A program made the position numbers and the translations under genes. The notes beneath the pieces were generated by a model. The model saw only the letters and a list, made by a program, of their open reading frames with translations, searched no databases and was not told where the DNA came from. This document shows, in pieces, positions 10,976 through 61,235 of a stretch of 64,000 nucleotides of DNA (within the stretch, counting starts at the first letter, position 1; each line of letters begins with the position of its first letter). Origin of the DNA: Deltaproteobacteria bacterium (GTDB lineage: Bacteria > Desulfobacterota > Syntrophobacteria > BM002); contig CP070689.1 in NCBI GenBank assembly GCA_020353155.1, positions 3,105,299 to 3,169,298 on the forward strand, read 5' to 3'.

Positions 10976-11266
10976 CCATCAACAGAGAGATCAATATCAG
11001 AATAAGAAAACTCTTGCCCCTGTGTCAAGGCAGGTAAGATTTAAGGTCTGTAGACCACGAATAACCTGTCTTTTGCAAACCTTTTCGCTTGACAAGGGCT
11101 AAGGAAATCGGTAGAAAAGTACAGATTTATCTTGTGAAAAAAAGCTTAATATGGCGTGATCCTGGCTCCATTCCCCGGTGCGAGTTGCAGCCCGGGAAGC
11201 GCGATCTCGCTAGAGTGTCTCACCTTTCATTCCTTAAACCTACACTCCAAAATACCGAGGCGTTCC

Positions 11267-11833: not shown

Positions 11834-11868
11834 CAGATTGGGAAATTTACAGTGAGGGGAAGGATCTC

Positions 11869-14241: not shown

Positions 14242-14249
14242 GGTAGGAA

Positions 14250-14999: not shown

Positions 15000-15036
15000 G
15001 CTAGATTAGAACCACCATGGACAAGAGAGGAAAACC

Positions 15037-45900: not shown

Positions 45901-46388
45901 TTGACATGAAGCTCCATGACGTTTTGGAATCTCCTCACCAGGTAGTAGGTTTGCACCTCCACCCGCAGAAGAGCGCAGGTTGGGGATCGGACAAACTCTT
46001 CCAACATTGGATGTTTGGTCAGGTAAATGGCGAGGACCTCATCTCGCTTGGAATCCACCAACTCTCTGGCGGTGCCAGTTGCGGTAACAGCAGCAGCTTG
46101 AGAAAAATCAGAGTCTTCATTCGAGCGATTGTCAATCAAAACTGTTACTCTGGCATCAGCCTCGATGTTGGCATACTTGCGGGTGGCGCGAGCTGTGGCA
46201 AAGTACAAGCTCTTCAGGTCGTCGCTAGCGGCAAAAGCTATGAGGTTGGCATAGGGCTGCCCCTTGTTTTGGGTGCCCAGTACTGCGAGTTTTTGCGACT
46301 CAAACAATTCTCTTATCAATTGTTCCAGCTCCGATTCCTCTCTCAAAAGGGCCTTTTTCCTGGAACCTGAATCAGTAATTTGTGCCAC
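45897..46388 (-). CDS. pyridoxamine 5'-phosphate oxidase-like FMN-binding split-barrel protein
   Basis: 163 aa. The pattern LAVLGTQNKGQPYANLIAFA...LYFATARATRKYANI is typical of the PNPOx-like family. It has a 4-nt overlap with the downstream gene. Confidence 0.7.
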   Translation of the reverse strand: MAQITDSGSRKKALLREESELEQLIRELFESQKLAVLGTQNKGQPYANLIAFAASDDLKSLYFATARATRKYANIEADARVTVLIDNRSNEDSDFSQAAAVTATGTARELVDSKRDEVLAIYLTKHPMLEEFVRSPTCALLRVEVQTYYLVRRFQNVMELHVK

Positions 46389-46400
46389 CGCTCACCTCCA

Positions 46401-46820
46401 CTACGGATTTTGTCTTGCCTCTAGTCTATAAAGAATCACTTTGTAAAGAGCCAAAAGCTCATCCCCGGCGGGGATATTCTCTGCCGAAGCCAATGCCGCT
46501 GAAACTTCCTCTTGATCCACGCCAAACTGGTCACAAAGCAAACGTGCCTGATGGTAAGTTGGCAGCCAGACCAACTTCTTGGAGATTTCCTCGGGTGAGC
46601 CGAAGATCCTGAGAAAGTGGCCTAAATTTAAAATGAAATATGTGCGGCCTGGGAAAGGAGAGGTCACCTCAATGATTTCATCAGGATCCCAGACAAAGCA
46701 GCCTACGTGCGGGGTCCATGATAAGCCCCTTTCCTTGAGTTGGGCAGCAGCCTGGCAATGTCGCAGGTCAAAAGGAATTGGAGGTAGATCCGTCTCTGGA
46801 TTAAATGGAGTAGGCTTCAT
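46401..46820 (-). CDS. hypothetical protein
   Basis: 139 aa. It has a 4-nt overlap with uvdE upstream. No recognisable motif. Confidence 0.55.
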   Translation of the reverse strand: MKPTPFNPETDLPPIPFDLRHCQAAAQLKERGLSWTPHVGCFVWDPDEIIEVTSPFPGRTYFILNLGHFLRIFGSPEEISKKLVWLPTYHQARLLCDQFGVDQEEVSAALASAENIPAGDELLALYKVILYRLEARQNP

Positions 46821-47725
46821 GCGACTAAAATGATTTCCTTTCCCTTCTGAAATTCTCTCATGATCTTGAGGGCTTTTAAGGCGCTGGTTTCCTTGTCCTT
46901 TATCTCCAGCATTAAATCAAAGTCTAATCCTCTGGTCTCTCGGAGAAACTTTTTGAACATTTCTTTGTTCAGCGTTTTTGCGTGTGACCCAGGCCGCTGA
47001 CCTCTCTGCTGACTACTGAAGTCTACCATAGGAATGCCATCTGCTTCTTTCCAGGTACTGGCAGATAGTTCCAAGCCTCGTCGCAATGTTTCACCGTTGT
47101 TGAGGCATTGGTGGTGAAAAACGTCGAATATTATGGGAATGCCAATTTTTTGGTGTACCGACAAACAATCGTCCAGGCTATATGACCTGTCGTCGTTCTC
47201 GATAACCAACCTGCTTTTGAGGGACTTACTCAAAGAGTTGTAAGTAGCAATAAACCTATCCATGGCGGATTGCTTGTCGCCGTACACCCCACCCAGATGA
47301 ATCTGGATCTTTGCGGTGCTGTCCAAGGCCATTTTGTCGAGGACGGTAAGGTGATATTCAAGTTCCCTTAAACTTCTCTCCACCACATCCTCTTTGAGCG
47401 CGTTAATAATTACAAATTGATCAGGATGCATGGAAATTCTTATGTTGTGCTCTTTTATAAACTCGCCAATTTCTCTAAATTGTCCCGAAAAATGGCCGGC
47501 CCAATCAAAGGTGCAAACGGGGTGTGAGGCGAAAGGGATCAGGTCAGAGCTGATTCTAAAAAAGTAGAAACCCTTCTGAACATTGTACTGCAAAATCTTA
47601 GAGAGACAGTTTAAATTGTTTTCCACCTTCTGAACTAAACGCTCCTCTGAATAAGAGGCCAGTCTGAAAGTGGAATTGCTTGTGCACCCGATGCCACGAT
47701 TTATACAGGGGTATCCTACTTTCAT
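46817..47725 (-). CDS. uvdE: UV damage endonuclease UvdE/UvsE
   Basis: 302 aa. MKVGYPCIN...FRLASY, RISSDLIPFASHP, and HPDQF are UvdE TIM-barrel signatures. Confidence 0.85.
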   Translation of the reverse strand: MKVGYPCINRGIGCTSNSTFRLASYSEERLVQKVENNLNCLSKILQYNVQKGFYFFRISSDLIPFASHPVCTFDWAGHFSGQFREIGEFIKEHNIRISMHPDQFVIINALKEDVVERSLRELEYHLTVLDKMALDSTAKIQIHLGGVYGDKQSAMDRFIATYNSLSKSLKSRLVIENDDRSYSLDDCLSVHQKIGIPIIFDVFHHQCLNNGETLRRGLELSASTWKEADGIPMVDFSSQQRGQRPGSHAKTLNKEMFKKFLRETRGLDFDLMLEIKDKETSALKALKIMREFQKGKEIILVA

Positions 47726-48016: not shown

Positions 48017-48178
48017 ATGGCTGAGGCAACGAAAGGTTCAATGGTGTATGTTTACGACAAAGACGGAAATGCTTACATCTGCGACATCGAAGATTTAAGG
48101 GATGCATCAACTGTAAGTGATGAAGAGAAAGCTACCTGTACTGATTTAGATAGGGGTGGATTCAGCAGGAACGAATAA
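48017..48178 (+). CDS. hypothetical small acidic protein (53 aa)
   Basis: Hand translation gives MAEATKGSMVYVYDKDGNAYICDIEDLRDASTVSDEEKATCTDLDRGGFSRNE*. RBS GGGAGG 7 nt upstream. It has its own terminator and is below the ORF-track cutoff. Confidence 0.55.
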   Translation: MAEATKGSMVYVYDKDGNAYICDIEDLRDASTVSDEEKATCTDLDRGGFSRNE

Positions 48179-48208
48179 GTCGTAAGAACTTCACCCATAA
48201 CAAACGCA

Positions 48209-48236
48209 GGCGAGTTATAGTCCACTCGCCTTTTTT
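48209..48236 (+). terminator. intrinsic terminator
   Basis: GGCGAGT-tatagtcc-ACTCGCC followed by T6 (48231-48236). Confidence 0.8.
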
Positions 48237-48436: not shown

Positions 48437-49861
48437 ATGGGAAATTTTAACAAGAAGATGAAAAGTAGCGAAACAGACAGAGTTCCAATTGCAAAAAAAC
48501 TGGCCTATGCGGCTCCAGCCTTTGCCCTAGCTATTGTGGGAATACCGGTATACGTTTACATCCCCAAATTCTACACTGACGTGGTGGGGGTAAATATCGC
48601 TATGCTGGGTTATTTGCTTTTGGCGGTGCGACTTTTCGACGCAGTGACTGACCCGGCAATTGGCTTTCTTTCCGACAAGACAAAGACCCGCTTCGGCAGG
48701 CGTAGACCTTACATTGCCGTTGGGGCAATCTTTCTCTCACTGTCGATGTATTTTCTCTTTAATCCACCCGAGGCTTCTCCTTATTTCGAGACTATCTGGT
48801 TCGGCGTGACGATTTTCTGTTTGTTTCTTTTCTGGACGGCAATTGTGGTTCCCTACGAGTCTCTTGGGCCTGAGATCACCTTTGATTATGACGAACGAAC
48901 CACCCTGCTCGGCATGAGAGATGGAGCCCTTATCGCGGGAACTCTCGCAGCGGCAAGTTCACCGGCAGCCGTGGCCTGGGCCTTTAGTCTTTCGCCAACC
49001 AACGAAGGTGAGCGGGCCAAGTTTTTTTGGATTGCGGTGCTCTATACGCCTTTGTTAGTTGCCTTCTGTTGGTGGTGTGTTTTGTCGATTCGCGAAAGGC
49101 CACAACTTTTCCGAGGAGATAAGCAAGGACTGCTGCAGGGACTCAGAGAGGTATCACAAAACAGGCCCTTTATAATTCTGCTGATCTCTTACATTGTAGC
49201 TGCCTTTGGTAGCAATCTGCCGGCTACTTTGATTCTCTACTATGTGGAATACGTGCTCCAATCAAAGCAAGCTGATCTATTCCTTCTCATTTACTTTGCT
49301 ACAGGCGTCTTTTTTCTGCCTGGCTGGATTTATATGGCACGGAAGCTGGAGAAAAAGGTTGCCTGGCTTACTGCCATGGTAATAAACACCGGCGCCTTTT
49401 TAGGCGTTTTTTTCCTTGGGCCGGGTGACGCTCACATCTACGGGGTCCTGGTCTTTCTCTCGGGAATCGGCTTGGGTGCAACCCTTGCCATACCCTCGGC
49501 CATGCAAGCTGATGTTATTGACTATGACGAGCTTATCTCAGGCCAGAGACGAGAGGGCCAATACATCGGCATATGGTCTATAACCAAAAAGCTTGCCGCT
49601 GCACTGGGGGTTGGCTTGGCACTATCTATTCTGGGCGCTGTAGGTTATACCCCAAATGTTGAGCAATCAGAACAGGTGCAGTTCACTCTCAGAGTTTTAT
49701 ACGCTCTAGTGCCTTCGCTTTGTAATGTTGCGGCTTTAGTCATAGCCTTGGCCTATCCTATTAGCCGCAGGATGCACAAAGATATTTTGGCAGCCATTGA
49801 AGGGCGGCGCGCGGGACAGCCTGTTACAGACCCTCTACGACATGGTCGAATACTCAGCTGA
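48437..49861 (+). CDS. MFS transporter of the glycoside-pentoside-hexuronide (GPH) type
   Basis: 474 aa, 12 TM. GPH signature DAVTDPAIGFLSDKTKTRFGRRRPY. Confidence 0.8.
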   Translation: MGNFNKKMKSSETDRVPIAKKLAYAAPAFALAIVGIPVYVYIPKFYTDVVGVNIAMLGYLLLAVRLFDAVTDPAIGFLSDKTKTRFGRRRPYIAVGAIFLSLSMYFLFNPPEASPYFETIWFGVTIFCLFLFWTAIVVPYESLGPEITFDYDERTTLLGMRDGALIAGTLAAASSPAAVAWAFSLSPTNEGERAKFFWIAVLYTPLLVAFCWWCVLSIRERPQLFRGDKQGLLQGLREVSQNRPFIILLISYIVAAFGSNLPATLILYYVEYVLQSKQADLFLLIYFATGVFFLPGWIYMARKLEKKVAWLTAMVINTGAFLGVFFLGPGDAHIYGVLVFLSGIGLGATLAIPSAMQADVIDYDELISGQRREGQYIGIWSITKKLAAALGVGLALSILGAVGYTPNVEQSEQVQFTLRVLYALVPSLCNVAALVIALAYPISRRMHKDILAAIEGRRAGQPVTDPLRHGRILS

Positions 49862-49899
49862 TCTCATGGTGGGAGCAAGTGTAGTCAGAGGAGAAATAA

Positions 49900-50691
49900 A
49901 TGGAGTATTTATGGTCCATTTTCGTCACTAACTTGTTTGCTGTAATGGTGATGATGTTTGGAGTCTGGGTACTTAGTCTGATTAAACGGGATGCGAGCAT
50001 AGTGGACGTGTTCTGGGGACTGGGTTTCGTTGTGGTTGCCTGGCTCACTTTCCTGCAAACGGACGGCTACCTGGGTCGAAAAATTCTGATAACCTTGCTC
50101 ACCACCCTTTGGGGACTCCGTTTAGCCATGCACATTCTCATAAGAGATTGGGGTCATGGTGAGGATCGCCGCTACCAGGCCTGGAGAGCCCAATATGGCG
50201 CCCGGTTCTGGTGGGTAAGTTTGTTTACCGTATTCGGCCTGCAAGGGGTCCTTTTGTGGGCTATCTCCCTCATCCTGCAAGTTGGGCAGATGTCAGCAAT
50301 TCCTGCGAGGCTGGTGATACTCGACTTTCTGGGGACGATTGTCTGGACCGTTGGTTTCATATTCGAGGCGGTAGCCGATTGGCAATTGTACCGCTTCAAG
50401 GCAGATCCAGAGAACAAAGGCAAAGTGATGAAAAAGGGGCTATGGGCTTACAGCCGACACCCCAATTATTTTGGTGAATCACTGATTTGGTGGGGCCTGT
50501 TCTTAATCACCCTGGCAACCCCAGGTAGCTTCTGGACGGTTATCAGTCCCATGGTCATAACTTTTCTATTACTAAAGGTTTCGGGAGTTACCCTGTTGGA
50601 GAAAACTATAGTTGATTCCAGACCTGAATATCGGGACTATATAGAATCCACCAGCAGTTTCATTCCCCGGCTTCCGCGAAAAAGGCATTAG
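49900..50691 (+). CDS. DUF1295 / steroid-5-alpha-reductase-like membrane protein
   Basis: 263 aa polytopic. C-terminal GLWAYSRHPNYFGE motif. Confidence 0.75.
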   Translation: MEYLWSIFVTNLFAVMVMMFGVWVLSLIKRDASIVDVFWGLGFVVVAWLTFLQTDGYLGRKILITLLTTLWGLRLAMHILIRDWGHGEDRRYQAWRAQYGARFWWVSLFTVFGLQGVLLWAISLILQVGQMSAIPARLVILDFLGTIVWTVGFIFEAVADWQLYRFKADPENKGKVMKKGLWAYSRHPNYFGESLIWWGLFLITLATPGSFWTVISPMVITFLLLKVSGVTLLEKTIVDSRPEYRDYIESTSSFIPRLPRKRH

Positions 50692-50809
50692 TGATGAGGG
50701 TCATGGCATATTTTGTTTTTAGTATGTGCCGAGTTTTGCAGGAATGAAAATGGCCAGCAGTGGCTGGTATCCCACTACCGGTTGAAGAAGTCAAAAGGGG
50801 TTGCGATCG

Positions 50810-51217
50810 TTAGAGAAAGCGCGTGGCAACAAGAAAGCCGCCTGCTGAAACAAGGCCACAGAGCACCATTCCCCAGAGGATATCCACCACTACAATTTTC
50901 ACCGGCCAATCTTTGAGGGTAGCCAGATTGGTGAGATCATAGGTTGCGTAGGTGAACAGACCGTAGAGCATACCCAGGATGACGGTTCGAGCAAATGAAC
51001 CACTATTGATTCCAGGTAATAGGGCGAAGACCAGTATTCCAAGAATGTAAAGAGAATAGAATATGCTGGCAGCAGTCCAATTGACCCGCTCTCTAAAAAA
51101 GCGGCCCAAATGCTTATTGTAAAAAGTCTTGGCAATGACACCCAACCAGAGACTGTCGATAGCGAAAAATAAAATGGCCGATGCTATATAGAGCTGAACA
51201 AGTTTTGCTGCAACCAT
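50810..51217 (-). CDS. DUF2177-family membrane protein
   Basis: 135 aa, 4 TM. The N-terminal pattern AILFFAIDSLWLGVIAKTFY matches my recollection of DUF2177. Confidence 0.65.
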   Translation of the reverse strand: MVAAKLVQLYIASAILFFAIDSLWLGVIAKTFYNKHLGRFFRERVNWTAASIFYSLYILGILVFALLPGINSGSFARTVILGMLYGLFTYATYDLTNLATLKDWPVKIVVVDILWGMVLCGLVSAGGFLVATRFL

Positions 51218-51314
51218 AAGCTTCCCTTTACTTTTGCTGTTTTGGATTAACTGCTCAACTTAGGTGGTTCTCTTAGTTGCCGCCGCCGAGGGAAGGACAG
51301 AGGGAACATGTCAC

Positions 51315-52085
51315 CTAGCTTTCATGGGAATAAGTAATAGTCACTTTTTTGTGTTTACCTGCAATATCTTCAAGGTTAGAAATTCCCTCATAGCGAAGGA
51401 GGTGACGATTCTTCAAGTCGTAATCAACATCGATATGGGGCGCGAAGGGTCTGAGCAACCAGTTGTCAACTTCAAGCCGGATATACAGGGTGTCACCATT
51501 GATCTTTCGTTTGCGAATTCTAAACTCATATTGGTCCAGCCTTGATGGCAATACTAGCCGAACCTGGAAAACTTCCCCTTGGGCTATCTGCTCGAGATTG
51601 TGGACAATAAACTGATGAAAACCTTGGCCTACTATTTGATCTGTTTCTTTGGGCAAATACTTTTCTTCAATATCATATTCGGGACTTTTCTTTCTAAATA
51701 GCCAAATCCTATCCTTTGCCACTTTTGCACCGTCCTGGTATTGGGCACGGATATCTCTGAAATCGTAGCTGCCAAACTGAGGACCGGAAGAATATTCTGA
51801 AATTAACTCTCCAATTTTATTGTTATTGGCGTCGTAATAAATAGTTTGGATCTCACTGACTTTGCCGTTTACGTGCGTAACAGTATGATACTCAACATAT
51901 TCCAAGGTGCCTTTGGAATCTACTGCTTTGCCTGCAAATTTTTCCCCGTGAGCTAGGGTTCCGAAACAACTTAGATTGAGGGCAGTGAAAAAAAGGAGTG
52001 ACCAAACTATGAGTATATATTTTCTATCTGTACCAGAAACATCCCTAAATCGCATATCTAAGAAATCCCCTGTGAAGCAATCCAT
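51315..52085 (-). CDS. hypothetical exported protein
   Basis: 256 aa. Signal-like segment ILIVWSLLFFTALNLSCFG. The start may be the ATG at 52055. No family recognised. Confidence 0.55.
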   Translation of the reverse strand: MDCFTGDFLDMRFRDVSGTDRKYILIVWSLLFFTALNLSCFGTLAHGEKFAGKAVDSKGTLEYVEYHTVTHVNGKVSEIQTIYYDANNNKIGELISEYSSGPQFGSYDFRDIRAQYQDGAKVAKDRIWLFRKKSPEYDIEEKYLPKETDQIVGQGFHQFIVHNLEQIAQGEVFQVRLVLPSRLDQYEFRIRKRKINGDTLYIRLEVDNWLLRPFAPHIDVDYDLKNRHLLRYEGISNLEDIAGKHKKVTITYSHES

Positions 52086-52150
52086 TTGAAAGTGTAAATT
52101 AGTTAAGTTTTTGCAAAATAAGACTTAGATTGTAAATGTCAAATATGAAG

Positions 52151-52191
52151 AAAAAACTAGTAGTATTAAACTACCATTTTGCTAGTTTTTT
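52151..52191. promoter_or_regulatory. perfect 10-bp inverted repeat AAAAAACTAG-N21-CTAGTTTTTT in a divergent promoter spacer
   Basis: The repeat arms are 52151-52160 and 52182-52191, with an inner TAGT-attaa-ACTA mini-hairpin. TAGTATT is repeated at 52161 and 52194. Confidence 0.4.
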
Positions 52192-52267
52192 ATTAGTATT
52201 GTTTTGTCTGTGTTCGCAACTATCATCTAAAATATATTTATTTTATTAAAATCAAAAATTAGGAGTT

Positions 52268-52621
52268 ATGTCGATGGAGAGATCAACTCATTATTTTCTA
52301 GCAGCGCTTTTTACCTTTGTTCTTTTAGCCATGCTTTCCATAACAATAACTGCGAGCATTGACCAGAACATTTTCGAGGCAGTGGGAAACATGTGGCCCA
52401 ACTGGTGGTTTAAAGCCACATTGGTGGATGCTTACTTCGGATTCCTTACCTTCTTCATTTGGGTAGCTTATAAGGAGCTCAGGCTCTGGCGCAAGCTACT
52501 TTGGTTTGCCCTCATCATGCTCTTGGGAAATTTGGCAATTCCAGCATACATGCTGATTGAAATCTATAAACTACAAGCTGGGGACACTTTTGCAACCTTG
52601 CTTACGAGGCGTAATGGCTAA
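52268..52621 (+). CDS. DUF1475-family membrane protein
   Basis: 117 aa, 4 TM. The motif WWFKATLVDAYFGFLTFFIWVAYKE matches my recollection of DUF1475. Confidence 0.6.
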   Translation: MSMERSTHYFLAALFTFVLLAMLSITITASIDQNIFEAVGNMWPNWWFKATLVDAYFGFLTFFIWVAYKELRLWRKLLWFALIMLLGNLAIPAYMLIEIYKLQAGDTFATLLTRRNG

Positions 52622-53100
52622 TGATTACAGGACTTCTCTATAGGAAAATAGTTGAACCTTTACTGACACTAATCAAACAGGGTATTTCTCCTGAGAAAAT
52701 TTCTCTGGGCATGACGTGCGGAATTGTACTCGGTGTATTCCCGGTTTTGGGTTCAACCACTATTTTATGCGGGCTCGCAGCAATTATTTTCCGGTTGAAC
52801 CTCCCGGCAATTCAGCTAGTAAATTATATAGTCTATCCCTTGCAGATCATGCTCCTAATTCCGTTTTTTCACCTTGGTGACCTCTTGTTTCAAGTAGAGC
52901 CTCTTCCTCTTTCAGCTCAAGAGCTCATCACCTTATTGCAGGCTGATTTGTGGGGTACCATCCGAGCCTTCTGGAACACCACCCTGCGAGCCATAGTAGC
53001 CTGGCTTCTGGCGAGCCTGCCAATTTTCTTAATCTTGCATTTCACTCTTATTCGGCTTATAAAGACATCTAGCTTTGCAAACATGGGAGCCAAGAGGTAA
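52621..53100 (+). CDS. DUF2062-family membrane protein
   Basis: 159 aa. GISPEKISLGMTCGIVLGVFPVLGSTT pattern. Its start overlaps the upstream stop (TAATG). Confidence 0.6.
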   Translation: MITGLLYRKIVEPLLTLIKQGISPEKISLGMTCGIVLGVFPVLGSTTILCGLAAIIFRLNLPAIQLVNYIVYPLQIMLLIPFFHLGDLLFQVEPLPLSAQELITLLQADLWGTIRAFWNTTLRAIVAWLLASLPIFLILHFTLIRLIKTSSFANMGAKR

Positions 53101-53299
53101 CACCGTTAAGGTCTTGGGGCTAATCCCCGAGCGCCAATCTTAGCCTGTACAACACGGCAAAAATCGAATCATCAAAGAAACTTCTAAGCGATCCATTCTG
53201 GTAGAACTCGGCTGCAAGTCATGTACTTGAAAATGGAAAGCGTAGCAGAAACTTTTGAATTTTCCGCATGAGTTTCTCCGTAAGGGAAGGGATGGCCAA

Positions 53300-53836
53300 A
53301 TGAAAAAGGTTTGGTCCATTGCCAAAGCATCTGTCATGCTGCTACTCCTCGGATGCACGACCATTCCTGATGGCCTGCAACCAGTGACAGGCTTCGAGCT
53401 TGAAAGGTATCTGGGCAAATGGTACGAGATCGCCAGGCTTGATCACTCCTTCGAGCGCAACCTATCCAAAGTGACTGCCCAGTACTCCCTGAGGCAGGAT
53501 GGTGGGGTTGAGGTGGTGAACCAGGGTTTTAACCAGAAATCCGGTAAGTGGGAGATGGTTACCGGTAAAGCCTACTTTATTGGAAAAGAAAGTGTTGGTA
53601 GTCTCAAGGTATCCTTTTTCGGCCCCTTTTATGGTGGTTATCACATCATTGCCTTAGACCAGCAAGATTACAGGTACGCCATGGTTACGGGTCCGAGTCG
53701 TTCATATCTCTGGATTTTATCGAGGGACATGACCTTGGACAATGTCATACTATTAGAACTTGTCGGCAAGGCCAAGCAATGGGGCTTCGAGACAGATAAG
53801 CTCATCTATGTAGACCATAACCTGTCTGAAACATAA
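53300..53836 (+). CDS. blc: bacterial lipocalin (Blc-like outer-membrane lipoprotein)
   Basis: Lipobox LLLGC and the lipocalin signature LERYLGKWYEIARLDHSFER. ATG at 53300. Confidence 0.85.
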   Translation: MKKVWSIAKASVMLLLLGCTTIPDGLQPVTGFELERYLGKWYEIARLDHSFERNLSKVTAQYSLRQDGGVEVVNQGFNQKSGKWEMVTGKAYFIGKESVGSLKVSFFGPFYGGYHIIALDQQDYRYAMVTGPSRSYLWILSRDMTLDNVILLELVGKAKQWGFETDKLIYVDHNLSET

Positions 53837-53930
53837 CTATAAGCCGGACGCAACCAACTCGTGTCGAAGACATACTAGTAAGAGTAGTATTGACAGATGG
53901 CTGCAAAAAAGTGTGGTGAGGAGCATGCTC

Positions 53931-55694
53931 ATGGATCGGCCTAAACTTTTGCTTACCACGGTATTCGGACCATACGGCATAAAGAACAAATATGCCGAAG
54001 GTGTCGGTATGCAGATGGAACTCTTTAACAACCAAATTACTCGCGAACAGGGTGTGCATTCACCCCGGGCAAATTACTGGACCTTTCCCCTTTACTTCCT
54101 GGCAGAAAACCTCTCCGCCGTTCCCACAACTGTACTCGATTTTCCTACCTGGAAAGACTACATCAGAGAACTGAAAAAAGGATACACCCATGTGGGTATT
54201 TCCTTTACCCAGCAAAATGTTATCAAAGCGAAGAGAATGACTAAGTATCTGCGAGAACAGTATCCGGAAACGAACATCATCTTGGGCGGCTATGGCACCA
54301 TGCTACCTGACCTGGAGGATATTGTTCCCTGTGATGAGATTTGCCGGGGGGAAGGAGTAGGCTGGCTTCGAGAATACTTCGGCGAAAATCCTGAGGCACC
54401 GATCAAGCATCCTATAATGCACGGTGTTTCTCAGAAGTACCTCTACGGTTTCAGAGACGTCATCGATGATAGCGGGGTGCTCTTTCCGGGACTCGGCTGC
54501 ACCAATGGTTGTTTTTTCTGTTCCACTTCAAACAAATTCAACAACTCTTACATTGCCTTTTTGCCCACAGGAGAATCAGTTTTTGCAGTGTGCAGAGAGG
54601 CGCAAGAAAAGTTAGGTGTCGAAGGCTTCGCCATCCTTGATGAGAACTTTCTCAAAATGCCAGAGAGGGCGCGGGATTTATTGGTAGAAATGGAACAACA
54701 CCGCCGGCCTTACTCCTTTGCCATGTTCTCCTCGGCAGAAACCATAGCTGAAGTAGGAGTGGACTTCCTAGTCAGGCTCGGCGTTTGTCTTATTTGGGTG
54801 GGGGTTGAATCTAAAAAGACCATCTTCTCCAAGGTAAAAGACATCGATGTCCACTCCCTGATTGCTGAGTTGCAAGCCAAGGGTATTACGGTGATTTCGT
54901 CATCGATTCTTTTTGTGGAGCACCATGACAAAGTGACCCTTGAAGAGGAGATCAACTGGGCAATTGGGCTGGGTACAGATCTTCATCAGTTTATGCAGCT
55001 CATACCGTTTCCGGGAACGCCCCTATACAGTAAGTACGTTGCTGAGGGGAAGATGATCCCTGACTTTCCTTACACCAAGCTGCACGGACAGGATGAACTG
55101 GCCTTCTACCATCCACATTTCACCAGCAAAGAGGCAGGAAGAATCACCCGGGAGGCTTTTCGCAAGAAGTATGAAACGGACGGACCAGGTGTCCTAAACA
55201 TGGCCCTTACAGTCATTCGTGGCTACAAAAGGGCGAAGGGGGATATGAAGTCCAGGGAAGAAGCGGGGCTATTTTGGAATCCCCAAACTCTCCGCTACGA
55301 AAGATCGACCGGCTATCAAATTGATGAATTTATGAATCTTCGGATTGAGCAAATGCGCCAGCGCGCCCTCGAATTTCGTCCTTTGATTCCGAGTGCCAGG
55401 ATTTTCGCTCCCAATAATGGTTCTCGCAAAAAGGCCGCACAGGCAGCCGCACTCTATAATGAAACCCTCGGAAAGCCCACGCTAAGGGAGCGTATCAGAT
55501 CCTACGGGCTTGTCTGCTTCGCCACTATTGAATGGTTGCGTATCCGAGTAAGGAGACTTTTCAGTAGAGGGGAAATTGTGCGACAACCTCTAACCTGCAG
55601 GGTGGAGTACAACAGCGAGTGCTCCAACTTCTCACCGGTTGAAACGTCAAAAATCCCATCTGGTCTGCAACACCGCTGTAATCTTTCAAGTTAG
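53931..55694 (+). CDS. B12-binding-domain radical SAM enzyme (class B)
   Basis: N-terminal cobalamin-domain-like HVGISF...IILGGYG, then the CTNGCFFC (CxxxCxxC) cluster motif near residue 190. The start is ATG 53931 (or 53925) after the GGTGAGGAG RBS. Confidence 0.8.
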   Translation: MDRPKLLLTTVFGPYGIKNKYAEGVGMQMELFNNQITREQGVHSPRANYWTFPLYFLAENLSAVPTTVLDFPTWKDYIRELKKGYTHVGISFTQQNVIKAKRMTKYLREQYPETNIILGGYGTMLPDLEDIVPCDEICRGEGVGWLREYFGENPEAPIKHPIMHGVSQKYLYGFRDVIDDSGVLFPGLGCTNGCFFCSTSNKFNNSYIAFLPTGESVFAVCREAQEKLGVEGFAILDENFLKMPERARDLLVEMEQHRRPYSFAMFSSAETIAEVGVDFLVRLGVCLIWVGVESKKTIFSKVKDIDVHSLIAELQAKGITVISSSILFVEHHDKVTLEEEINWAIGLGTDLHQFMQLIPFPGTPLYSKYVAEGKMIPDFPYTKLHGQDELAFYHPHFTSKEAGRITREAFRKKYETDGPGVLNMALTVIRGYKRAKGDMKSREEAGLFWNPQTLRYERSTGYQIDEFMNLRIEQMRQRALEFRPLIPSARIFAPNNGSRKKAAQAAALYNETLGKPTLRERIRSYGLVCFATIEWLRIRVRRLFSRGEIVRQPLTCRVEYNSECSNFSPVETSKIPSGLQHRCNLSS

Positions 55695-55700
55695 TGCGGC

Positions 55701-56984
55701 CTAAACAACAAGGGGCGGTAATAGTGATGGGCGGCGGCAAAGGGGTTTAGTGAGAAGCATCTGTACGTCACCCAGGTAGCGCTCGGCAAAGCCAGCCTCG
55801 CAGTAACAAAGATAATAATCCCACATGCGAATGAAGGTCTCTGGATAGCCAAGATCGAGCACTTTGTCTAGGTTGGCAAAGAACCTTTGCCTCCAGGTTT
55901 GGAGGGTTCTGGCATAGTGAGTAGTTATATCCTCTAAGTGGAAAAGCTTTAAGTCGCTGGCGCGGGCAAGGGATCTACATATGGCCGTAATAGAGGGTAT
56001 GCAGCTTCCCGGAAAGATGTAGCGTTTGATGAAGTCTACACTCCGTTTGTGCCGGTCAAAAACTTGGTCTGCAATAGTTATGGCCTGAAGGAGCATCATG
56101 CCGTCTTCTTTCAAAAGTTTGCTACAAGAGCGGAAAAATGTGTCCAAATACTTATGGCCCACGGCCTCTATCATTTCGATGGAAACCAGCTTGTCGTACT
56201 TACCTCTAAGATCCCGATAATCCTCCAACAGCAGTTCTACCCTATGGGCCACTCCGGCTTTGTCGATTAGCTCTTTTGCCAGATCATATTGGGCTGTGGA
56301 AATTGTGGTTGTGGTTATGCGGCAGCCATAATTCTGTACTGCGTAGATGGCAAAACCACCCCAGCCAGAGCCGATTTCAACTACATGATCTTTTGAGGAC
56401 AGATCCAGCTTCTGGCAGATACGAGCGTATTTCGTCATGGACGCCTCTTTGAGGGTGCTGTCCTCGCACTCGAATATGCCGCAGGAGTAAGTGAGGGTCT
56501 CGTCGAGAAAGAGCTTATAGAAGTCGTTTCCCAGGTCGTAATGGGCAGCGATGTTGAGTCGACTTCCCTTTTTTGTGTTGCTCCGAAAAAGATGATAAAT
56601 CATGTGGAGAGGAGCTGTGAGCCAGGCCAGACCTTTTTCCATTGACTCCAGAACTCCTTGATTCAAGATGATGATACGCACCACCGTGGTCAAGTCATCG
56701 GTTGACCAGTAGCCTGCCATGAAAGCCTCGCTGGCGCCAATACTGCCGCCAAATACTATGGAGCTATAGAAGCGGGGATGATGAACGGTGATTGTGGCTT
56801 CAAGGGGGAATTGGCTGTTTTTTTCGCCGAAAAGACGACGGACAGAGCTGTCGATTATAGTGAGTTCTCCCCATCGCAGACCACGGAGGAGCGAAAAAAG
56901 TAATTTTTTTGCCAGCTGATCAAACCGACTTGGTTTAGTCTGCTCAATAGCTGAAGCTTCTGCTGGCACAATGGAGTCAGTCAT
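55701..56984 (-). CDS. cfa: cyclopropane-fatty-acyl-phospholipid-synthase-family SAM methyltransferase
   Basis: 427 aa. AHYDLGNDFY, SAM site VVEIGSGWGGFAIYA, and a C-terminal YLCYCEAGF motif. Confidence 0.85.
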   Translation of the reverse strand: MTDSIVPAEASAIEQTKPSRFDQLAKKLLFSLLRGLRWGELTIIDSSVRRLFGEKNSQFPLEATITVHHPRFYSSIVFGGSIGASEAFMAGYWSTDDLTTVVRIIILNQGVLESMEKGLAWLTAPLHMIYHLFRSNTKKGSRLNIAAHYDLGNDFYKLFLDETLTYSCGIFECEDSTLKEASMTKYARICQKLDLSSKDHVVEIGSGWGGFAIYAVQNYGCRITTTTISTAQYDLAKELIDKAGVAHRVELLLEDYRDLRGKYDKLVSIEMIEAVGHKYLDTFFRSCSKLLKEDGMMLLQAITIADQVFDRHKRSVDFIKRYIFPGSCIPSITAICRSLARASDLKLFHLEDITTHYARTLQTWRQRFFANLDKVLDLGYPETFIRMWDYYLCYCEAGFAERYLGDVQMLLTKPLCRRPSLLPPLVV

Positions 56985-56987
56985 AAT

Positions 56988-57746
56988 CTACTCTCTTTTG
57001 TCTGGGTGGACATAAAAAGGCACCCCCTTGGACCATAACCTAAGGGCCTGGAGATAAATCATAGTGGTGACCTTGAGGGTCATGAAGGGATAGGCCAATA
57101 AGACTCTGTTTAAACCATAGCTGTCAATCTCCCTTCGATTCAGGGTCAAGGTAGCATCGAAAAGCTTTTTCCCCTTTTCAAAGTTGTTCATATGCACACT
57201 CAATAGTTTGCCCGGCTCTCTAAATCTCCAATCATACCATATATCCATATCCATAAAGGGTGAGACGTGGAAATTCTTGCTGAACTGATAGCGCTTCCAC
57301 CCCCTAACAGGATGCTCATTCAGCTCCTCAGCAAGAACGTAGCAATATTCTTCACCCCACGGGGTGTTGTGAATCTCAACCACCATGGTTTCAACCTGCT
57401 GGCCTGATTGGTCATAACAGTAATAAAAACTTACAGGATTGAAACAGTACCCGAAGTATCTCAAGTGAGTGAGCATACGAATAGGGCCGGTGACCCGTTT
57501 TTGCAATCGATCTTCCACAAGGTCACTGACAGCTTGCTGGAGAGGAACTCTCGGGTCGCCCAGGTGATCGCGACGGCGTAGATAAGCAAGATTAACCCGA
57601 TCATGCGACCAGATAATATTCCTCTGGAACAGCCCCGGCAGTTCCTCCAGGTCTAGGAACATAAAAAAAACACGATAACGAAAGGAGTTCTCCACCGGAC
57701 GGAAGCGACGGTGGCGAACATGACCCTCGTAGATGCAGCTATTCAT
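56988..57746 (-). CDS. DUF1365-family protein
   Basis: 252 aa. The N-terminus CIYEGHVRHRRFRPVENSFRYRVFFMFLDLEEL is the characteristic DUF1365 opening. Confidence 0.8.
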   Translation of the reverse strand: MNSCIYEGHVRHRRFRPVENSFRYRVFFMFLDLEELPGLFQRNIIWSHDRVNLAYLRRRDHLGDPRVPLQQAVSDLVEDRLQKRVTGPIRMLTHLRYFGYCFNPVSFYYCYDQSGQQVETMVVEIHNTPWGEEYCYVLAEELNEHPVRGWKRYQFSKNFHVSPFMDMDIWYDWRFREPGKLLSVHMNNFEKGKKLFDATLTLNRREIDSYGLNRVLLAYPFMTLKVTTMIYLQALRLWSKGVPFYVHPDKRE

Positions 57747-57748
57747 GT

Positions 57749-58993
57749 TTAAATGGTTTTTCCGAAATGTTCACACACAGCCAGAGCACTGTTGACGCCG
57801 TCTTCATGGAATCCATAACCCCAGTAGGCACCGCAGAAATAGGTGCGATTGACACCGTTTATCTCCAGGCGACGCTTCTGGGCCATAAGACCCTGGGGTG
57901 TGTAAACTGGATGGTGATAGATGAACTCTCGAATGATCTTGCTTCGATCAATAATCTCAGGACGATTTAGGGTTACGCAGAAATCAGTCTGAGAGGTGAG
58001 GCTTTGGAGCATATTCATGTAATAGGTTAGAGCTACCCGCCCCAGTTCCTCCTGGGGAATAAGGTAGTTCCAGCTTGCCCAGGCGGCTTTTCTCTTAGGA
58101 AGAAGAGAGGAGTCAGTATGCAAGGTGGTGACATTTTCCTGATATGGGATTGATTCTAAAATCTCCTTTTCGGCATCAACCGGATCGGCCAGCATGGCAA
58201 GGGCCTGATCGCTGTGTGTTGCTATTACGACCTGATCAAACCTCTCAGGGTCACCATGACGCGGTATTATCTCCACCTGGTCAGGATGACGCTTTATCGA
58301 CTCCACCGGGCAATTGAGTCGCACTTTTTCTCTGTATGGCCTGGTAAGGGGTTCGACATAGCTCCTTGAGCCACCTTTGATTACCTGCCACTGGGGTTGG
58401 TCTTTCACGTTAAGGAATCCGTGGTTGTTGAAAAACTGGACAAAAGAATGGGCTGGAAACTCTTTGAATTTCTTGGGATCGGCCGACCATATGGCCGCGC
58501 CCATGGGGATGATGAAATGATTGATAAAGGGCCGAGAGTATCTTTTTTCCGCCAAGTAACCTCCGAGGGTAGTTTCGTAGTCCTTTGAGCGCAAAATTTC
58601 TTGAGCCTCCCGACGAAAGCGAAACACCTCAAAGAGCATACGGTAAAAAGAGGGGCGAAAGAGATTTCTTCTCTGGGCAAAGAGGGAATTCAGGGTGCTG
58701 GGGCAATACTCCAAGCCGGTTAGTTCACACTGCACACTGAAGCTCATGTTGGAAGGTTGATAGGTTACGCCCAACCGCTCCATCAGTTTGACAAAATTGG
58801 GGTAGTTTTCCTTGTTGAAAACTATGAAGCCGGTATCTACCCTATAATTCGCGCCATTGAGCTCAACATCCATAGTGTTGGTATGCCCACCAATGTAATC
58901 GTTTGCCTCGAAAACAACCACGTCGTGGTCTTCACACAACAGGTGGGCAGCAACCATTCCTGAAATACCAGCACCGACAATGGCGATTCTCAT
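57749..58993 (-). CDS. NAD(P)/FAD-dependent oxidoreductase (amine-oxidase/phytoene-desaturase-like)
   Basis: 414 aa. Dinucleotide fold MRIAIVGAGISGMVAAHLL. It is the first gene of the FAD-ox/DUF1365/cfa operon, with gaps of 2-3 nt. Confidence 0.85.
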   Translation of the reverse strand: MRIAIVGAGISGMVAAHLLCEDHDVVVFEANDYIGGHTNTMDVELNGANYRVDTGFIVFNKENYPNFVKLMERLGVTYQPSNMSFSVQCELTGLEYCPSTLNSLFAQRRNLFRPSFYRMLFEVFRFRREAQEILRSKDYETTLGGYLAEKRYSRPFINHFIIPMGAAIWSADPKKFKEFPAHSFVQFFNNHGFLNVKDQPQWQVIKGGSRSYVEPLTRPYREKVRLNCPVESIKRHPDQVEIIPRHGDPERFDQVVIATHSDQALAMLADPVDAEKEILESIPYQENVTTLHTDSSLLPKRKAAWASWNYLIPQEELGRVALTYYMNMLQSLTSQTDFCVTLNRPEIIDRSKIIREFIYHHPVYTPQGLMAQKRRLEINGVNRTYFCGAYWGYGFHEDGVNSALAVCEHFGKTI

Positions 58994-59166: not shown

Positions 59167-60402
59167 CTAGCCCTGAGCCTGTCGAAGGGCTGCTATCTGC
59201 CTGCTTGCTTTTCTCGGTGGTGCCCCGGTATTCAGCCATTCCACCGACCGTCTTATGCCGGCCAGGGTGAGATCTTCCATGGGAAAGATCTCGCCTATTT
59301 GATAAATGGTCTGGCTTTCCTGAGGCCATCGGTTTCGGGGGATGGGGTTGAGCCACACGCTGTGACCGAAGTAGTTGCGCACTTGCCAGAGCCAGTCCCG
59401 TCCGGGCACTCTCACCTTGGAAAAATAATCCATAGCACCGTCGGAGAGCATGAGCTCGGCCGGAGCCATGTTGGCGTCACCTATGATGATCACCCGAGTT
59501 TCAGGGTCCCGTCTTAACATCTGGTAGATGGGATAGGGAGTCAAACGTTGGGGATCACTGTAGACGCAGCCGTAGATGCAGTTGTGGAAATAGTAGTAGT
59601 CCAGGTCCTTGAACTGATCGCGCATGAGGCCAAAGACCAGCTTTACCAGATCCAAATAAGGTCGCATGGAGGCGCCACCATTGTCCAACAATACCATAAG
59701 TTCAATGCGATCTTTCAATTCTCTTCTAAATACCAGTTCGATCTCCCCCCCGTTTCTGCAAGATTGATCTATGGTCTCATCAACATCTAGTTCGGTTGGT
59801 GGACCTGCCGGAGCCATGTGTTTGAGTGCCGCCAATACCTGGCGGAGGTTTTCGGCCCGCAGGGTAGCACTGGCAGTATAATCCACATATCGACGACCTT
59901 CTATCACCTTCAGGGCGGAGCCGTACAGGGAGTCGCCGTATACTCTAATTCCTTCCTGATCGCCACCGGAGTGACCAAAGTGGGAGGTTCCGCCTGTACC
60001 GACCCAGGTGGCACCGCCCTGGTGTTCTCCTCTCTGCTCCAGGGCGACTTCCCAGAAGCGCTGGAGCAGTTCCGACAGTGACAGTCGTTCCAGGGCGTCG
60101 TCCGGCAGAGAACCCTTGCCGATCTCTTCTTCCAGCCAGCGACGAAACAGGGTGTTCTCCCACTCCTGCCGGGAAAATCTTGTCCCCTCTGCCCCTTCAG
60201 TGCCAAAAAAATAGGCAGCGAAAGCTTGCTCAAAAACATCGAAATGCTCCACTTTCTTGACGAAAATCAGTCTCATCAAGAGAAAGAGCCGATCAAGGTC
60301 TGGGGCAAGTCCCTTCTTTAAGGCCTGATAGAATTCCAGTACGTATTTCAGGCTTACCGGAATACCCTGGTCGCGCAACTGGTAAAAGAAAGGAAGGAAC
60401 AT
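59167..60402 (-). CDS. VWA-domain protein of the CoxE type
   Basis: 411 aa. The N-terminal pattern FYQLRDQGIPVSLKYVLEFYQAL is typical of VWA_CoxE. The C-terminal region is VWA-like (LMVLLDNGGSM-like LLDNGGASM). Confidence 0.75.
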   Translation of the reverse strand: MFLPFFYQLRDQGIPVSLKYVLEFYQALKKGLAPDLDRLFLLMRLIFVKKVEHFDVFEQAFAAYFFGTEGAEGTRFSRQEWENTLFRRWLEEEIGKGSLPDDALERLSLSELLQRFWEVALEQRGEHQGGATWVGTGGTSHFGHSGGDQEGIRVYGDSLYGSALKVIEGRRYVDYTASATLRAENLRQVLAALKHMAPAGPPTELDVDETIDQSCRNGGEIELVFRRELKDRIELMVLLDNGGASMRPYLDLVKLVFGLMRDQFKDLDYYYFHNCIYGCVYSDPQRLTPYPIYQMLRRDPETRVIIIGDANMAPAELMLSDGAMDYFSKVRVPGRDWLWQVRNYFGHSVWLNPIPRNRWPQESQTIYQIGEIFPMEDLTLAGIRRSVEWLNTGAPPRKASRQIAALRQAQG

Positions 60403-60410
60403 GGCTGTCT

Positions 60411-61235
60411 CTAAGGTTTCTCTCGCTCAACGCCCTTGTGATGCAGCAAGTCCTGGGTACGCTTTAACAGGGTTCCGAGAAAAGGAACTGTATCTGGAGA
60501 AAGTGGTGGTTTCACGCCGTCGAGCTGCAAGGCGCCAAGCCAATCTAGCAGTTCTGCTGTGGCAGGTGGTTTTTCAAATCCCTGTTCTCTTAGATGATAG
60601 AAGATTGCCAGGGCCGAATCCATCAAGGGTGCCGAAATTTCAGGGTAGTGTAGCCGAACAATGCGGCTCATTTCTTCCATGTCCGGAAAGGGAATGTGAT
60701 GGCAATAGCAGCGCCGGAGGAAAGGATCGGAGAGCTCCCTTTTGGCATTGCTTGTAATGACGATGACAGGCATATATTTTGCCTTCACCTTATAATTTAT
60801 CTCACGAATGATGAAAGATCCATCTTCCAGCACGTCCAATAAGTTGTCTTGAGTGTCCGAATCAGTCTTGTCTATCTCGTCCAACAGAAGAACCCGCCTT
60901 TCGTCTGACATGAAAGCACGACCAATAGGACCGAAATTCAAATAATCCCAAATATTGTTAACATCTCTGCCGCTTTCTTCAGTGCCGAACCTCGAATCGT
61001 TGAGACGCAAGACCGTATCATAGACGTAGCAGAGTTCTTCTCCTTTAAAAGTCGACTTGCATCGAGCCTCTTCCAGGGTCAAGTCCAGAGCCCGAGAAAT
61101 TTGGAAGGCCAATTGAGTCTTGCCGGTGCCAGCCTCGCCAGTGACCAGCAAAGGTTTATCCATGGCCATGGCGATGTTGACAATTTCTTTTAGCTCGGGG
61201 TTGAGGTAGTATTTGTCAGTGCCATGAAACTGCAT
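60411..61235 (-). CDS. MoxR-like AAA+ ATPase (AAA_5)
   Basis: 274 aa. Walker A GEAGTGKTQLA and Walker B LLLDEIDK. It is paired with the downstream VWA gene. Confidence 0.85.
   Translation of the reverse strand: MQFHGTDKYYLNPELKEIVNIAMAMDKPLLVTGEAGTGKTQLAFQISRALDLTLEEARCKSTFKGEELCYVYDTVLRLNDSRFGTEESGRDVNNIWDYLNFGPIGRAFMSDERRVLLLDEIDKTDSDTQDNLLDVLEDGSFIIREINYKVKAKYMPVIVITSNAKRELSDPFLRRCYCHHIPFPDMEEMSRIVRLHYPEISAPLMDSALAIFYHLREQGFEKPPATAELLDWLGALQLDGVKPPLSPDTVPFLGTLLKRTQDLLHHKGVEREKP

Follow-up and report, generated by a model that had tools for sequence, protein, structure and literature searches.

Furan fatty acids are potent radical scavengers, and a locus that looks equipped to make them in an anaerobe raises the question of what such an organism would use them for. 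The bacterial pathway was solved only in 2020, in aerobic or facultative phototrophs (PMC7380195). The locus considered here occupies positions 48437-58993 of a 64,000-nucleotide (nt) stretch of contig CP070689.1 from a Deltaproteobacteria bacterium (assembly GCA_020353155.1), the whole of which is referred to below as the window. An earlier note on this DNA had described an eleven-gene cluster for membrane-lipid modification, centred on a trio of genes encoding a flavin adenine dinucleotide (FAD) oxidoreductase, a DUF1365 protein and a methyltransferase resembling cyclopropane fatty acid (CFA) synthase; it had likened the trio to the Ufa genes of Rhodobacter sphaeroides, and had called its presence in an apparently anaerobic background unexpected. 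With a probability of roughly 60%, we read the locus as a lineage-specific form of a widespread photo-oxidative/oxygen-stress membrane-lipid module with a Ufa-type trio, carried by a sulfate-reducer-type Desulfobacterota genome. What is new in it appears to be the form that the module takes in an anaerobe, joined by a conserved class-B radical S-adenosylmethionine (SAM) partner and with UvdE in place of photolyase.

In R. sphaeroides the pathway comprises UfaD (RSP1091, a FAD protein), UfaO (RSP1090, a DUF1365 protein) and UfaM (RSP2144), a CFA-synthase-like methylase that gives a methyl-branched trans-olefin instead of a cyclopropane, and O2 supplies the furan oxygen (Lemke et al. 2020, PMC7380195); these roles, and the need for O2, had been given correctly before. 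Open reading frames (ORFs) of the window were taken from a program-made list and assigned to families by Pfam and NCBIfam profile searches, which place the following three genes at the centre of the locus:

57749-58993, minus strand: FAD oxidoreductase, UfaD-like, first gene of the trio (PF01593 Amino_oxidase, 92.9 bits, and PF13450 NAD_binding_8)
56988-57746, minus strand: DUF1365 protein, UfaO-like (PF07103, 285.8 bits, full length)
55701-56984, minus strand: CMAS-family SAM methyltransferase, UfaM candidate (Pfam CMAS, 285.8 bits)

The genes are packed on one strand with gaps of 2 nt (FAD oxidoreductase/DUF1365) and 3 nt (DUF1365/CMAS), as had been stated, in the ufaD-ufaO-ufaM order of RPA2571-2570-2569 of Rhodopseudomonas palustris. 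Their products, of 414, 252 and 427 amino acids (aa), are similar in length to RSP1091, RSP1090 and RSP1089 (430, 250 and 402 aa). The first protein combines the PF01593 and PF13450 domains of an NAD/FAD-binding, phytoene-desaturase-like enzyme, the type to which UfaD belongs; it has weak matches to NCBIfam families of the crtI/HpnE type, and LkcE is its best solved relative. The AlphaFold2 model of the DUF1365 protein (predicted local distance difference test, pLDDT, 87.5) is a calycin-like beta-barrel with a long helix, for which Foldseek returned weak matches to the FABP-like fatty-acid-binding Ycf58, to nitrobindin and to the ether-forming spirocyclase OssO. This predicted fold fits a lipid-binding cyclising enzyme and proves nothing.

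The trio travels as a unit. DUF1365 loci were collected in an alignment scan covering one genome per GTDB species, and the best 80 of at least 597 confirmed matches were compared (cited below by L numbers); clustering of ORFs gave spurious antisense families in high-GC loci, so that all counts were redone by tblastn with window proteins and family representatives. The 80 loci cover Desulfobacterota, Nitrospirota, Gammaproteobacteria, Planctomycetota, Acidobacteriota, Gemmatimonadota, Latescibacterota, Kiritimatiellia and others. A gene for the FAD oxidoreductase lies near DUF1365 in 78/80 and one for a CMAS protein in 73/80, which bears out the strong co-conservation claimed for the trio, and the order FAD oxidoreductase-DUF1365-CMAS on one strand holds in nearly all. 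With the families and gene order of the proven R. palustris furan pathway, and with that order kept in almost every one of the 80 loci over many phyla, this is a known module, and its architecture and synteny point to the Ufa/singlet-oxygen lipid type. DUF1365 and CMAS are even fused, as a single 655-aa ORF with both Pfam domains, in L110 (8060-10027) and apparently in L113 (9840-11780); the L110 fusion is a Rosetta-stone link between UfaO-like and UfaM-like functions, and plants have a fusion of UfaM-like and UfaD-like domains (PMC10940516). Identity of the window proteins to the annotated trios of Paracoccus, Azospirillum and Salinivibrio is 28-50%, and 40-50% for the first gene alone; in these comparators the trio stands beside an extracytoplasmic function (ECF) sigma factor and ChrR (Paracoccus, Azospirillum) or beside YbgA-MerR-PhrB (Salinivibrio).

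Is the third protein a UfaM or a cyclopropane synthase? It falls below the NCBIfam cut-offs for Cfa (274 against 400 for NF008686; 281 against 600 for NF053839). With E. coli Cfa (PDB 6BQC) it shares the CMAS fold, the SAM-binding motifs and the bicarbonate-site residues C139, E239 and Y317, but the full Cfa site also needs H266 and I268, and the window enzyme, which is longer by ~45 residues, has a glutamine (Q300) in place of H266. The same glutamine is found in 56/56 trio orthologs and in the trio enzymes of Salinivibrio and Paracoccus, and the histidine is retained in a second CMAS paralog (CMAS2) and in a Cfa coupled to a radical-SAM gene in locus L174 (both described below). The trio methyltransferases form one orthologous group, marked by an invariant glutamine at this position, and the window enzyme is not a canonical cyclopropane synthase; a glutamine here may be diagnostic of non-cyclopropanating enzymes.

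A sulfate-reducer-type, Syntrophobacterales-like anaerobe is a plausible host, since the radical-SAM and DUF1365 proteins find their best named relatives in metagenome-assembled genomes (MAGs) of Syntrophobacterales and Deltaproteobacteria, and since the window contains, at 11156-16269 on the plus strand, a Qrc-like set of four genes, which encode a cytochrome c3/c7 with several haems, a subunit of the molybdopterin family, a 4Fe-4S protein and the membrane subunit NrfD. Such sets are typical of sulfate-reducing Desulfobacterota, and Qrc-type complexes together with the cultured Syntrophobacterales point to a strict anaerobe of the sulfate-reducer type. The window also holds MoaA and the origin-proximal genes mnmE, yidC, jag and rsmG. 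The trio is not, however, the oddity in an anaerobe that it had been taken for: the module is common in Desulfobacterota MAGs, the closest DUF1365 relatives among the matches listed are Syntrophobacterales, Desulfobaccales, Desulfobacterales, Desulfocapsa, Geobacteraceae and Nitrospirae MAGs, and the nearest relatives of all three trio proteins, again among the matches listed, come from Desulfobacterota and other MAGs, typically of anoxic habitats. White is said to have reported furan fatty acids from Dehalococcoides cultures in 2005. Since the relatives are anoxic-habitat MAGs, several of them with an O2-dependent desaturase in the trio operon, and since furan fatty acids reportedly occur in Dehalococcoides, finding the trio here is less surprising.

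What sets the locus apart is the gene that faces the trio:

53913-55694, plus strand: class-B-like (B12-domain) radical-SAM protein, 593 aa (sub-threshold Pfam matches, CxxxCxxC motif, AlphaFold fold)

Its ORF begins at a GTG at 53913 and not, as previously given, at 53931. The B12-binding match in Pfam reaches 21.6 bits against a gathering score of 32.1, the Radical_SAM match likewise stays below its gathering score, no NCBIfam family scores above its cut-off, and a search of the single sequence against the PDB gave no match, a family profile yielding a marginal match to biotin synthase only. The CxxxCxxC motif (C196/C200/C203) is invariant in 29 homologs, and the AlphaFold model (pLDDT 85.5) has the three-part architecture of class-B radical-SAM enzymes: an N-terminal Rossmann-like domain, a radical-SAM barrel bearing the motif and a helical C-terminal domain. 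Foldseek matches the model to AprD4, CysS, TsrM, MgmA and TokK with E values of 1e-13 to 1e-8, although identity is only 12-15%; AprD4, the best structural match, is not known to use cobalamin. The class-B (cobalamin-domain) assignment is thus a prediction at the level of architecture.

Does this gene belong with the lipid genes, or is it a bystander? Four ortholog neighbourhoods had suggested that it was unrelated to the trio, a view overturned by a metagenome scan that returned 80 loci with radical-SAM orthologs, linkage being scored where the flank was at least 3 kb. Module genes accompany the ortholog in 6/6 loci at an identity of at least 72%, in 8/9 at 57-61% and in 3/43 below 57%, each of these three having a MoxR-like AAA+ gene; orthologs at least 57% identical are therefore linked in 14/15 loci, with UvdE, DUF1295 and the trio among the partners. 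The 57-61% group represents a different lineage, with a GC content of 55-65% and DUF1365 proteins only 32-34% identical to that of the window. In L110 the order is radical-SAM-UvdE-DUF1295-DUF2878-Chalcone_3-DUF3833, followed by glutathione peroxidase, the FAD oxidoreductase and the DUF1365-CMAS fusion. UvdE follows the radical-SAM gene in L107, L108, L110 and L111, with a 4-nt overlap in L110, and is itself followed by DUF1295 in all four; DUF1295 comes directly after the radical-SAM gene in L112 and L176, and the gene is followed by the trio in L113 and by PNPOx in L006 and L106. At 10001-12822 of L174, a 58%-identical radical-SAM gene overlaps a canonical Cfa-like gene by 4 nt, in the neighbourhood of CDP-alcohol phosphatidyltransferase, LGT and MMPL genes. 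The L174 contig is labelled Woesearchaeota and looks bacterial.

A paralogous subfamily, 31% identical to the window protein over its full length, repeats the association. Its members sit within trio operons in L019 (Geobacteraceae; DUF1295-DUF2177-radical-SAM-trio-CMAS2-lipocalin) and in L176 (SOUL-DUF1499-Chalcone_3-PNPOx-ThiS-trio-radical-SAM-DUF1295-DUF2177, an operon-like run in which PNPOx precedes the trio), and beside DUF2177-DUF1295 in L177, with DUF1295 just downstream on the opposite strand; the neighbourhoods of two further members showed no link to the module. The L019 paralog is split by a frameshift at ~7396-7441, and its 84%-identical relative P0242 is full length (566 aa), so that L019 has either suffered an error in assembly or only recently lost a working gene. 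In several anaerobic lineages, then, the lipid module has this radical-SAM family as a genuine, recurrent associate. The earlier remark on an extra radical-SAM gene beside the trio has accordingly gained in weight, and the enzyme most plausibly acts on acyl chains, to judge from the company it keeps. Our literature search found no paper joining "radical SAM" with furan fatty acids or DUF1365.

The same neighbourhoods could be read in favour of a role outside lipids, in the repair of DNA or protein damage, for instance in a light-independent lesion repair with UvdE that replaces photolyase; the enzyme would then have no more in common with the Ufa genes than a stress island or its regulation. 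The run of radical-SAM gene and UvdE in four loci, overlapping stop to start in L110, would fit this, as would the PNPOx, rubrerythrin, Msr and AhpC genes beside radical-SAM orthologs and the lack of lipid neighbours at most distant orthologs; photolyase, common in the aerobic clusters, was not found by tblastn in the window or in the searched set of radical-SAM loci, from which L176 and L177 were absent. A repair enzyme would hardly be expected, however, to overlap a canonical Cfa gene among phospholipid genes, as in L174, or to be embedded between the methyltransferase and DUF1295-DUF2177, as is the L176 paralog; a patatin-like phospholipase lies beside five distant orthologs (and a TetR regulator beside seven), the predicted fold resembles small-molecule class-B enzymes, and spore-photoproduct lyase is not among the 50 Foldseek matches listed. 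We hold a repair function to be quite improbable.

A second alternative, and the main one, leaves the enzyme in lipid metabolism and dispenses with O2. The trio product would then be not a furan fatty acid but an O2-independent one (a mid-chain methyl or methylene branch, a conjugated diene or a cyclopropane derivative), the FAD enzyme, DUF1295 and the radical-SAM enzyme supplying the redox and radical steps. The host, a sulfate-reducer-type anaerobe, speaks for this, and Desulfobacteraceae are known for 10-methyl-16:0 made by the CFA-synthase-like TmpB with a flavoprotein (PMC7791843). An O2-dependent membrane fatty-acid desaturase is present in 40/80 DUF1365 loci, directly upstream of the FAD oxidoreductase in 34 of them, and tblastn found none in the radical-SAM loci searched (the same set, without L176 and L177); in L019 the radical-SAM paralog occupies exactly this slot upstream of the FAD oxidoreductase. 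DUF1295, finally, resembles Steroid_dh. The resemblance to the 10-methyl systems, TmpBA of Desulfobacteraceae and Marinobacter and BfaAB of actinomycetes, extends to the pairing of a CFA-synthase-like methyltransferase with a flavoprotein, to phospholipid acyl chains as substrate and, for TmpBA, to occurrence in Desulfobacterota. It ends at the flavoprotein, which is of the amine-oxidase type in the window, whereas TmpA is geranylgeranyl-reductase-like and BfaA belongs to a different flavoprotein family without homology to TmpA; the gene order differs as well, being the reverse of tmpBA, and a DUF1365 gene is interposed that both systems lack (PMC7791843). DUF1365 is, moreover, kept in every case, and the one function known for the family is O2-dependent furan formation (PMC7380195). 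Half of the closest loci, including those of Desulfobaccales, Desulfosarcina and the Olavius Delta-3 symbiont, carry the O2-dependent desaturase beside the trio, which speaks for a module designed to operate in the presence of O2. An O2-independent product therefore seems to us unlikely, as does the supply of its redox and radical steps by these three enzymes. More doubtful still is the specific proposal that the radical-SAM enzyme takes over, in anaerobes, an O2-dependent step of the pathway, either that of the membrane desaturase or the desaturation/oxygenation steps, although parallel pairs exist in BchE and AcsF and in HemN and HemF. If it were true, strict anaerobes would need no O2 to make novel acyl chains, be they methyl-branched, diene, furan-like or of another kind.

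How far does the module extend beyond the trio and its radical-SAM partner? All eleven ORFs with the domains assigned to them are present at 48437-58993, and Pfam families agree with the earlier list. The seven ORFs to the left of the radical-SAM gene, together with a gene relic among them, are as follows:

48437-49861, plus strand: GPH/MFS_2 transporter (Pfam MFS_2, 321 bits; TIGR00792 above cut-off)
49900-50691, plus strand: DUF1295 membrane protein, steroid-5-alpha-reductase/ICMT-like (Pfam, 256 bits; weaker Steroid_dh, PEMT and ICMT matches)
50704-50793, plus strand: CMAS2 relic, last ~30 codons (tblastn with four CMAS2 proteins)
50810-51217, minus strand: DUF2177 membrane protein (Pfam, 154.8 bits)
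51315-52085, minus strand: exported or membrane-anchored protein, 256 aa (no Pfam family; hydrophobic N-terminus)
52268-52621, plus strand: DUF1475-like small membrane protein (Pfam match weak, 30 bits)
52621-53100, plus strand: DUF2062 small membrane protein (Pfam, 48 bits)
53255-53836, plus strand: Blc-type outer-membrane lipocalin (Lipocalin_2, 135 bits; NF007786, 229 bits)

The gene content of the consecutive layout described before stands, and its strand picture does not: with DUF2177 and the exported protein encoded on the minus strand, eight plus-strand genes are not simply followed by three minus-strand ones, and the region comprises at least five transcription units of alternating direction. 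The DUF1475 stop and the DUF2062 start share base 52621.

Nor are the eleven genes a conserved unit. Among the recurrent neighbours that had been proposed for the trio, DUF1295 (54/80 DUF1365 loci) and the lipocalin (22/80) are confirmed, DUF2177 (8/80) and DUF1475 (5/80) are rarer, and DUF2062 occurs in 1/80, as do the exported protein and UvdE; the MFS transporter is found in 2/80, so that MFS, DUF1475, DUF2062 and the exported protein each reach at most 5/80. Other families are more regular companions: CMAS2, next to DUF1295, in 48/80, a DUF2878-like protein in 36/80, DUF6134 in 23/80, a LitR-like MerR+B12 regulator in 19/80, photolyase in 12/80, YbgA in 11/80, glutathione peroxidase in 10/80, PNPOx in 4/80 (L012, L013, L015 and L039) and a PEP-utilising enzyme in 3/80. 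The VWA, AAA+, flavin reductase and old yellow enzyme (OYE) genes that also lie in the window were found in 0/80. The whole layout is retained only in close relatives, which alone have the VWA/AAA+ and flavin genes in common and in which DUF1475 and DUF2062 are always upstream of the radical-SAM gene; the eleven-gene arrangement is mostly lineage-specific. Even among close relatives the lipocalin is missing from its window position in L002-L005 and present in L094 and L105. Loci with DUF2177 belong to six Desulfobacterota-type MAGs, Victivallales and Kiritimatiellae. A 67%-identical MFS homolog lies upstream of DUF1295 in L014, and the window transporter is 36% identical, over near full length, to the MFS protein encoded after the methyltransferase in the ChrR-linked Azospirillum cluster L092. 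The exported protein is conserved only in close relatives, apart from one 23% match in L074; the idea that it is a diverged DUF6134 of the gammaproteobacterial clusters was rejected (hhalign probability 0.2%).

It might then be asked whether the juxtaposition is due to chance, the trio being the sole functional unit. The rarity of MFS, DUF2062 and the exported protein, the 0/80 counts for VWA/AAA+, flavin reductase, OYE and a 192-aa protein, the five or more transcription units in alternating directions, and L001, where a 76%-identical radical-SAM gene has no trio nearby, would all be in keeping with this. Chance does not readily account, however, for the recurrence of DUF1295, lipocalin and DUF2177, nor for that of radical-SAM, UvdE and PNPOx genes with module genes in other lineages and in the paralogous subfamily, and in an alga singlet oxygen induces members of these families together (PMC4067076). 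We consider chance juxtaposition very improbable, the least probable of the alternatives weighed here.

The CMAS2 relic shows that the locus has also lost a gene. Directly after the DUF1295 stop, ~30 residues (translation WHILFLVCAEFCRNENGQQWLVSHYRLKK) match the C-terminus of four CMAS2 proteins at 42-57% identity, with E down to 1e-6 (tblastn), and in the close relative L101 an intact CMAS2 gene follows DUF1295; the lineage of the window has therefore recently deleted a second methyltransferase. CMAS2 is 22-28% identical to the trio methyltransferase, much as the furan-ring methylase FufM is 26% identical to UfaM, and CMAS2 or its relic possibly corresponds to FufM.

On either side of the locus, the window carries further genes of interest:

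41009-41965, minus strand: PAS + LuxR-type helix-turn-helix regulator, at the left edge of the island
43723-45900, minus strand: PPDK_N/PEP-utilizers enzyme (Pfam), with a 4-nt overlap with the end of the PNPOx gene
45897-46388, minus strand: PNPOx-like flavoprotein (Pfam), divergent from the MFS-DUF1295 unit
46817-47725, minus strand: UvdE (Pfam), divergent from the MFS-DUF1295 unit
59167-60402, minus strand: VWA protein, CoxE-like (Pfam), upstream of the trio on the same strand
60411-61235, minus strand: MoxR-like AAA+ protein (Pfam), upstream of the trio on the same strand

A 139-aa protein of no assigned family is encoded between the UvdE and PNPOx-like genes on the minus strand, and AhpC, an OYE-family enzyme and a flavin reductase are found elsewhere in the window (Pfam). 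Homologs of the PPDK_N/PEP-utilizers enzyme, 50-53% identical, lie beside PNPOx and near the trio in L012, L013 and L015, loci that come from a Desulfobaccales genome, a delta MAG and a Nitrospirae MAG. In L010, L121 and L122 a distant radical-SAM ortholog is closely followed by a MoxR-like AAA+ gene (AAA5), with VWA_CoxE called or confirmed in L010 and L122. Since these orthologs have no trio, the AAA+/VWA pair may serve the radical-SAM enzyme and not the Ufa genes, perhaps in cofactor insertion. UvdE and the MFS gene diverge from a region of 712 bp that contains a 53-codon ORF (48018-48179, plus strand, beginning MAEATKGSMVYVYDKDGNAYICDIEDL). The Shine-Dalgarno sequence of this ORF is good, and a strong hairpin resembling a terminator follows at 48208-48231.

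What, then, would trigger the module? UvdE, the PNPOx-like protein and AhpC suggest that the wider locus is a damage-response island. The set induced by singlet oxygen in Chlamydomonas includes CFA2, DUF1365, DUF2177, DUF1295, GPX5, SOUL and MSRA (PMC4067076), and DUF2177 and DUF1295 have been linked to heliorhodopsin neighbourhoods, so that neither the module nor its tie to stress is new in its broad lines. The window resembles the rpoE-chrR clusters, the YbgA-MerR/LitR-PhrB-SDR-trio-DUF2878-DUF3833 clusters of Vibrionaceae and P. syringae, and the Chlamydomonas SAK1 regulon in its trio, DUF1295, DUF2177, lipocalin and peroxidase-type neighbours, and it resembles the photo-oxidative stress clusters in having a DNA-damage gene in the same island. 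Unlike these clusters, it has UvdE for photolyase, lacks MerR/LitR, ChrR, SDR, NTF2 and a sigmaE motif, and has radical-SAM, DUF1475, DUF2062 and MoxR/VWA genes instead. It departs from R. sphaeroides Ufa, with which it shares the three families, in its anaerobic Desulfobacterota host, in having no sigmaE/ChrR control, in its class-B radical-SAM gene and in the deletion of the second methyltransferase. The absence of an ECF sigma/anti-sigma pair from the window had been pointed out before, and none was detected among the 62 window ORFs scanned in Pfam, the genome outside the window being unseen. Neither LitR nor photolyase nor the membrane desaturase was found in the window by tblastn with representatives, and scans of the window for sigma-70 promoters and terminators did no better than on shuffled sequence. 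The PAS-LuxR regulator was considered as a LOV-type light sensor and set aside, no LOV-type flavin-binding cysteine motif being seen by eye in its translation.

Several observations weigh against a Ufa-type oxygen-stress module. No known regulator of such modules, neither sigmaE/ChrR nor LitR, was found in the window. The sigmaE-ChrR promoter consensus is TGATCC-N16-CGTA (PMC5507510); TGATCC-N15-17-CGTA has 0 matches in the window, and a relaxed form of it turns up about as often as chance would have it, always within genes. The diene and furan products of UfaD and UfaO were seen only under aerobic growth (PMC7380195), and the present host looks like a strict anaerobe. The likeness to Ufa is one of families and gene order, sequence identity having been measured only against annotated, plasmid-borne proxy trios, and to the sigma/ChrR-linked alphaproteobacterial trios (Paracoccus, Azospirillum) it is only 28-44%. 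In R. sphaeroides the third gene of the operon, RSP1089 (402 aa), which holds the place of the trio methyltransferase, is dispensable for furan fatty acids and UfaM is encoded elsewhere (PMC7380195), so that a UfaM role for the window methyltransferase is not secure. The radical-SAM gene is convergent with the trio CMAS gene, with 6 nt between the stops, and is not co-transcribed with it; its 76%-identical ortholog in L001 and most orthologs below 57% are not next to the trio, and the linked loci represent only about five lineages, so that the linkage counts are not phylogenetically independent.

The Ufa-type module nevertheless remains the reading that we prefer, and from gene content, families, synteny, co-occurrence and the active-site signature we infer both its catalytic steps and its physiological trigger. 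By analogy with RPA2571-2569 of R. palustris, the methyltransferase would methylate a cis-monounsaturated phospholipid acyl chain to a methyl-branched trans-olefin, the FAD enzyme would introduce a second double bond, and the DUF1365 barrel protein would insert O2-derived oxygen, closing the furan ring. DUF1295, DUF2177, the Blc lipocalin and MFS_2 would be its recurrent partners in lipid handling or in the membrane. For the radical-SAM enzyme the most likely task would be a radical step that needs no O2, performed on the acyl chains on which CMAS-type methyltransferases work. The pathway would be active only when the anaerobe meets O2 or oxidants, consuming O2 and yielding radical-scavenging acyl chains; read most simply, it is a membrane defence set off by oxygen or oxidants in organisms of oxic-anoxic boundaries.

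A Ufa-type module that is common in sulfate-reducer-type and other anaerobic lineages suggests that membranes are defended, or O2 is consumed in response, where oxic and anoxic zones meet. The well conserved radical-SAM family, which keeps recurring beside lipid methyltransferases of the CFA-synthase type, gains a concrete candidate substrate class, and the products of such loci may provide new lipid biomarkers in anoxic sediments.

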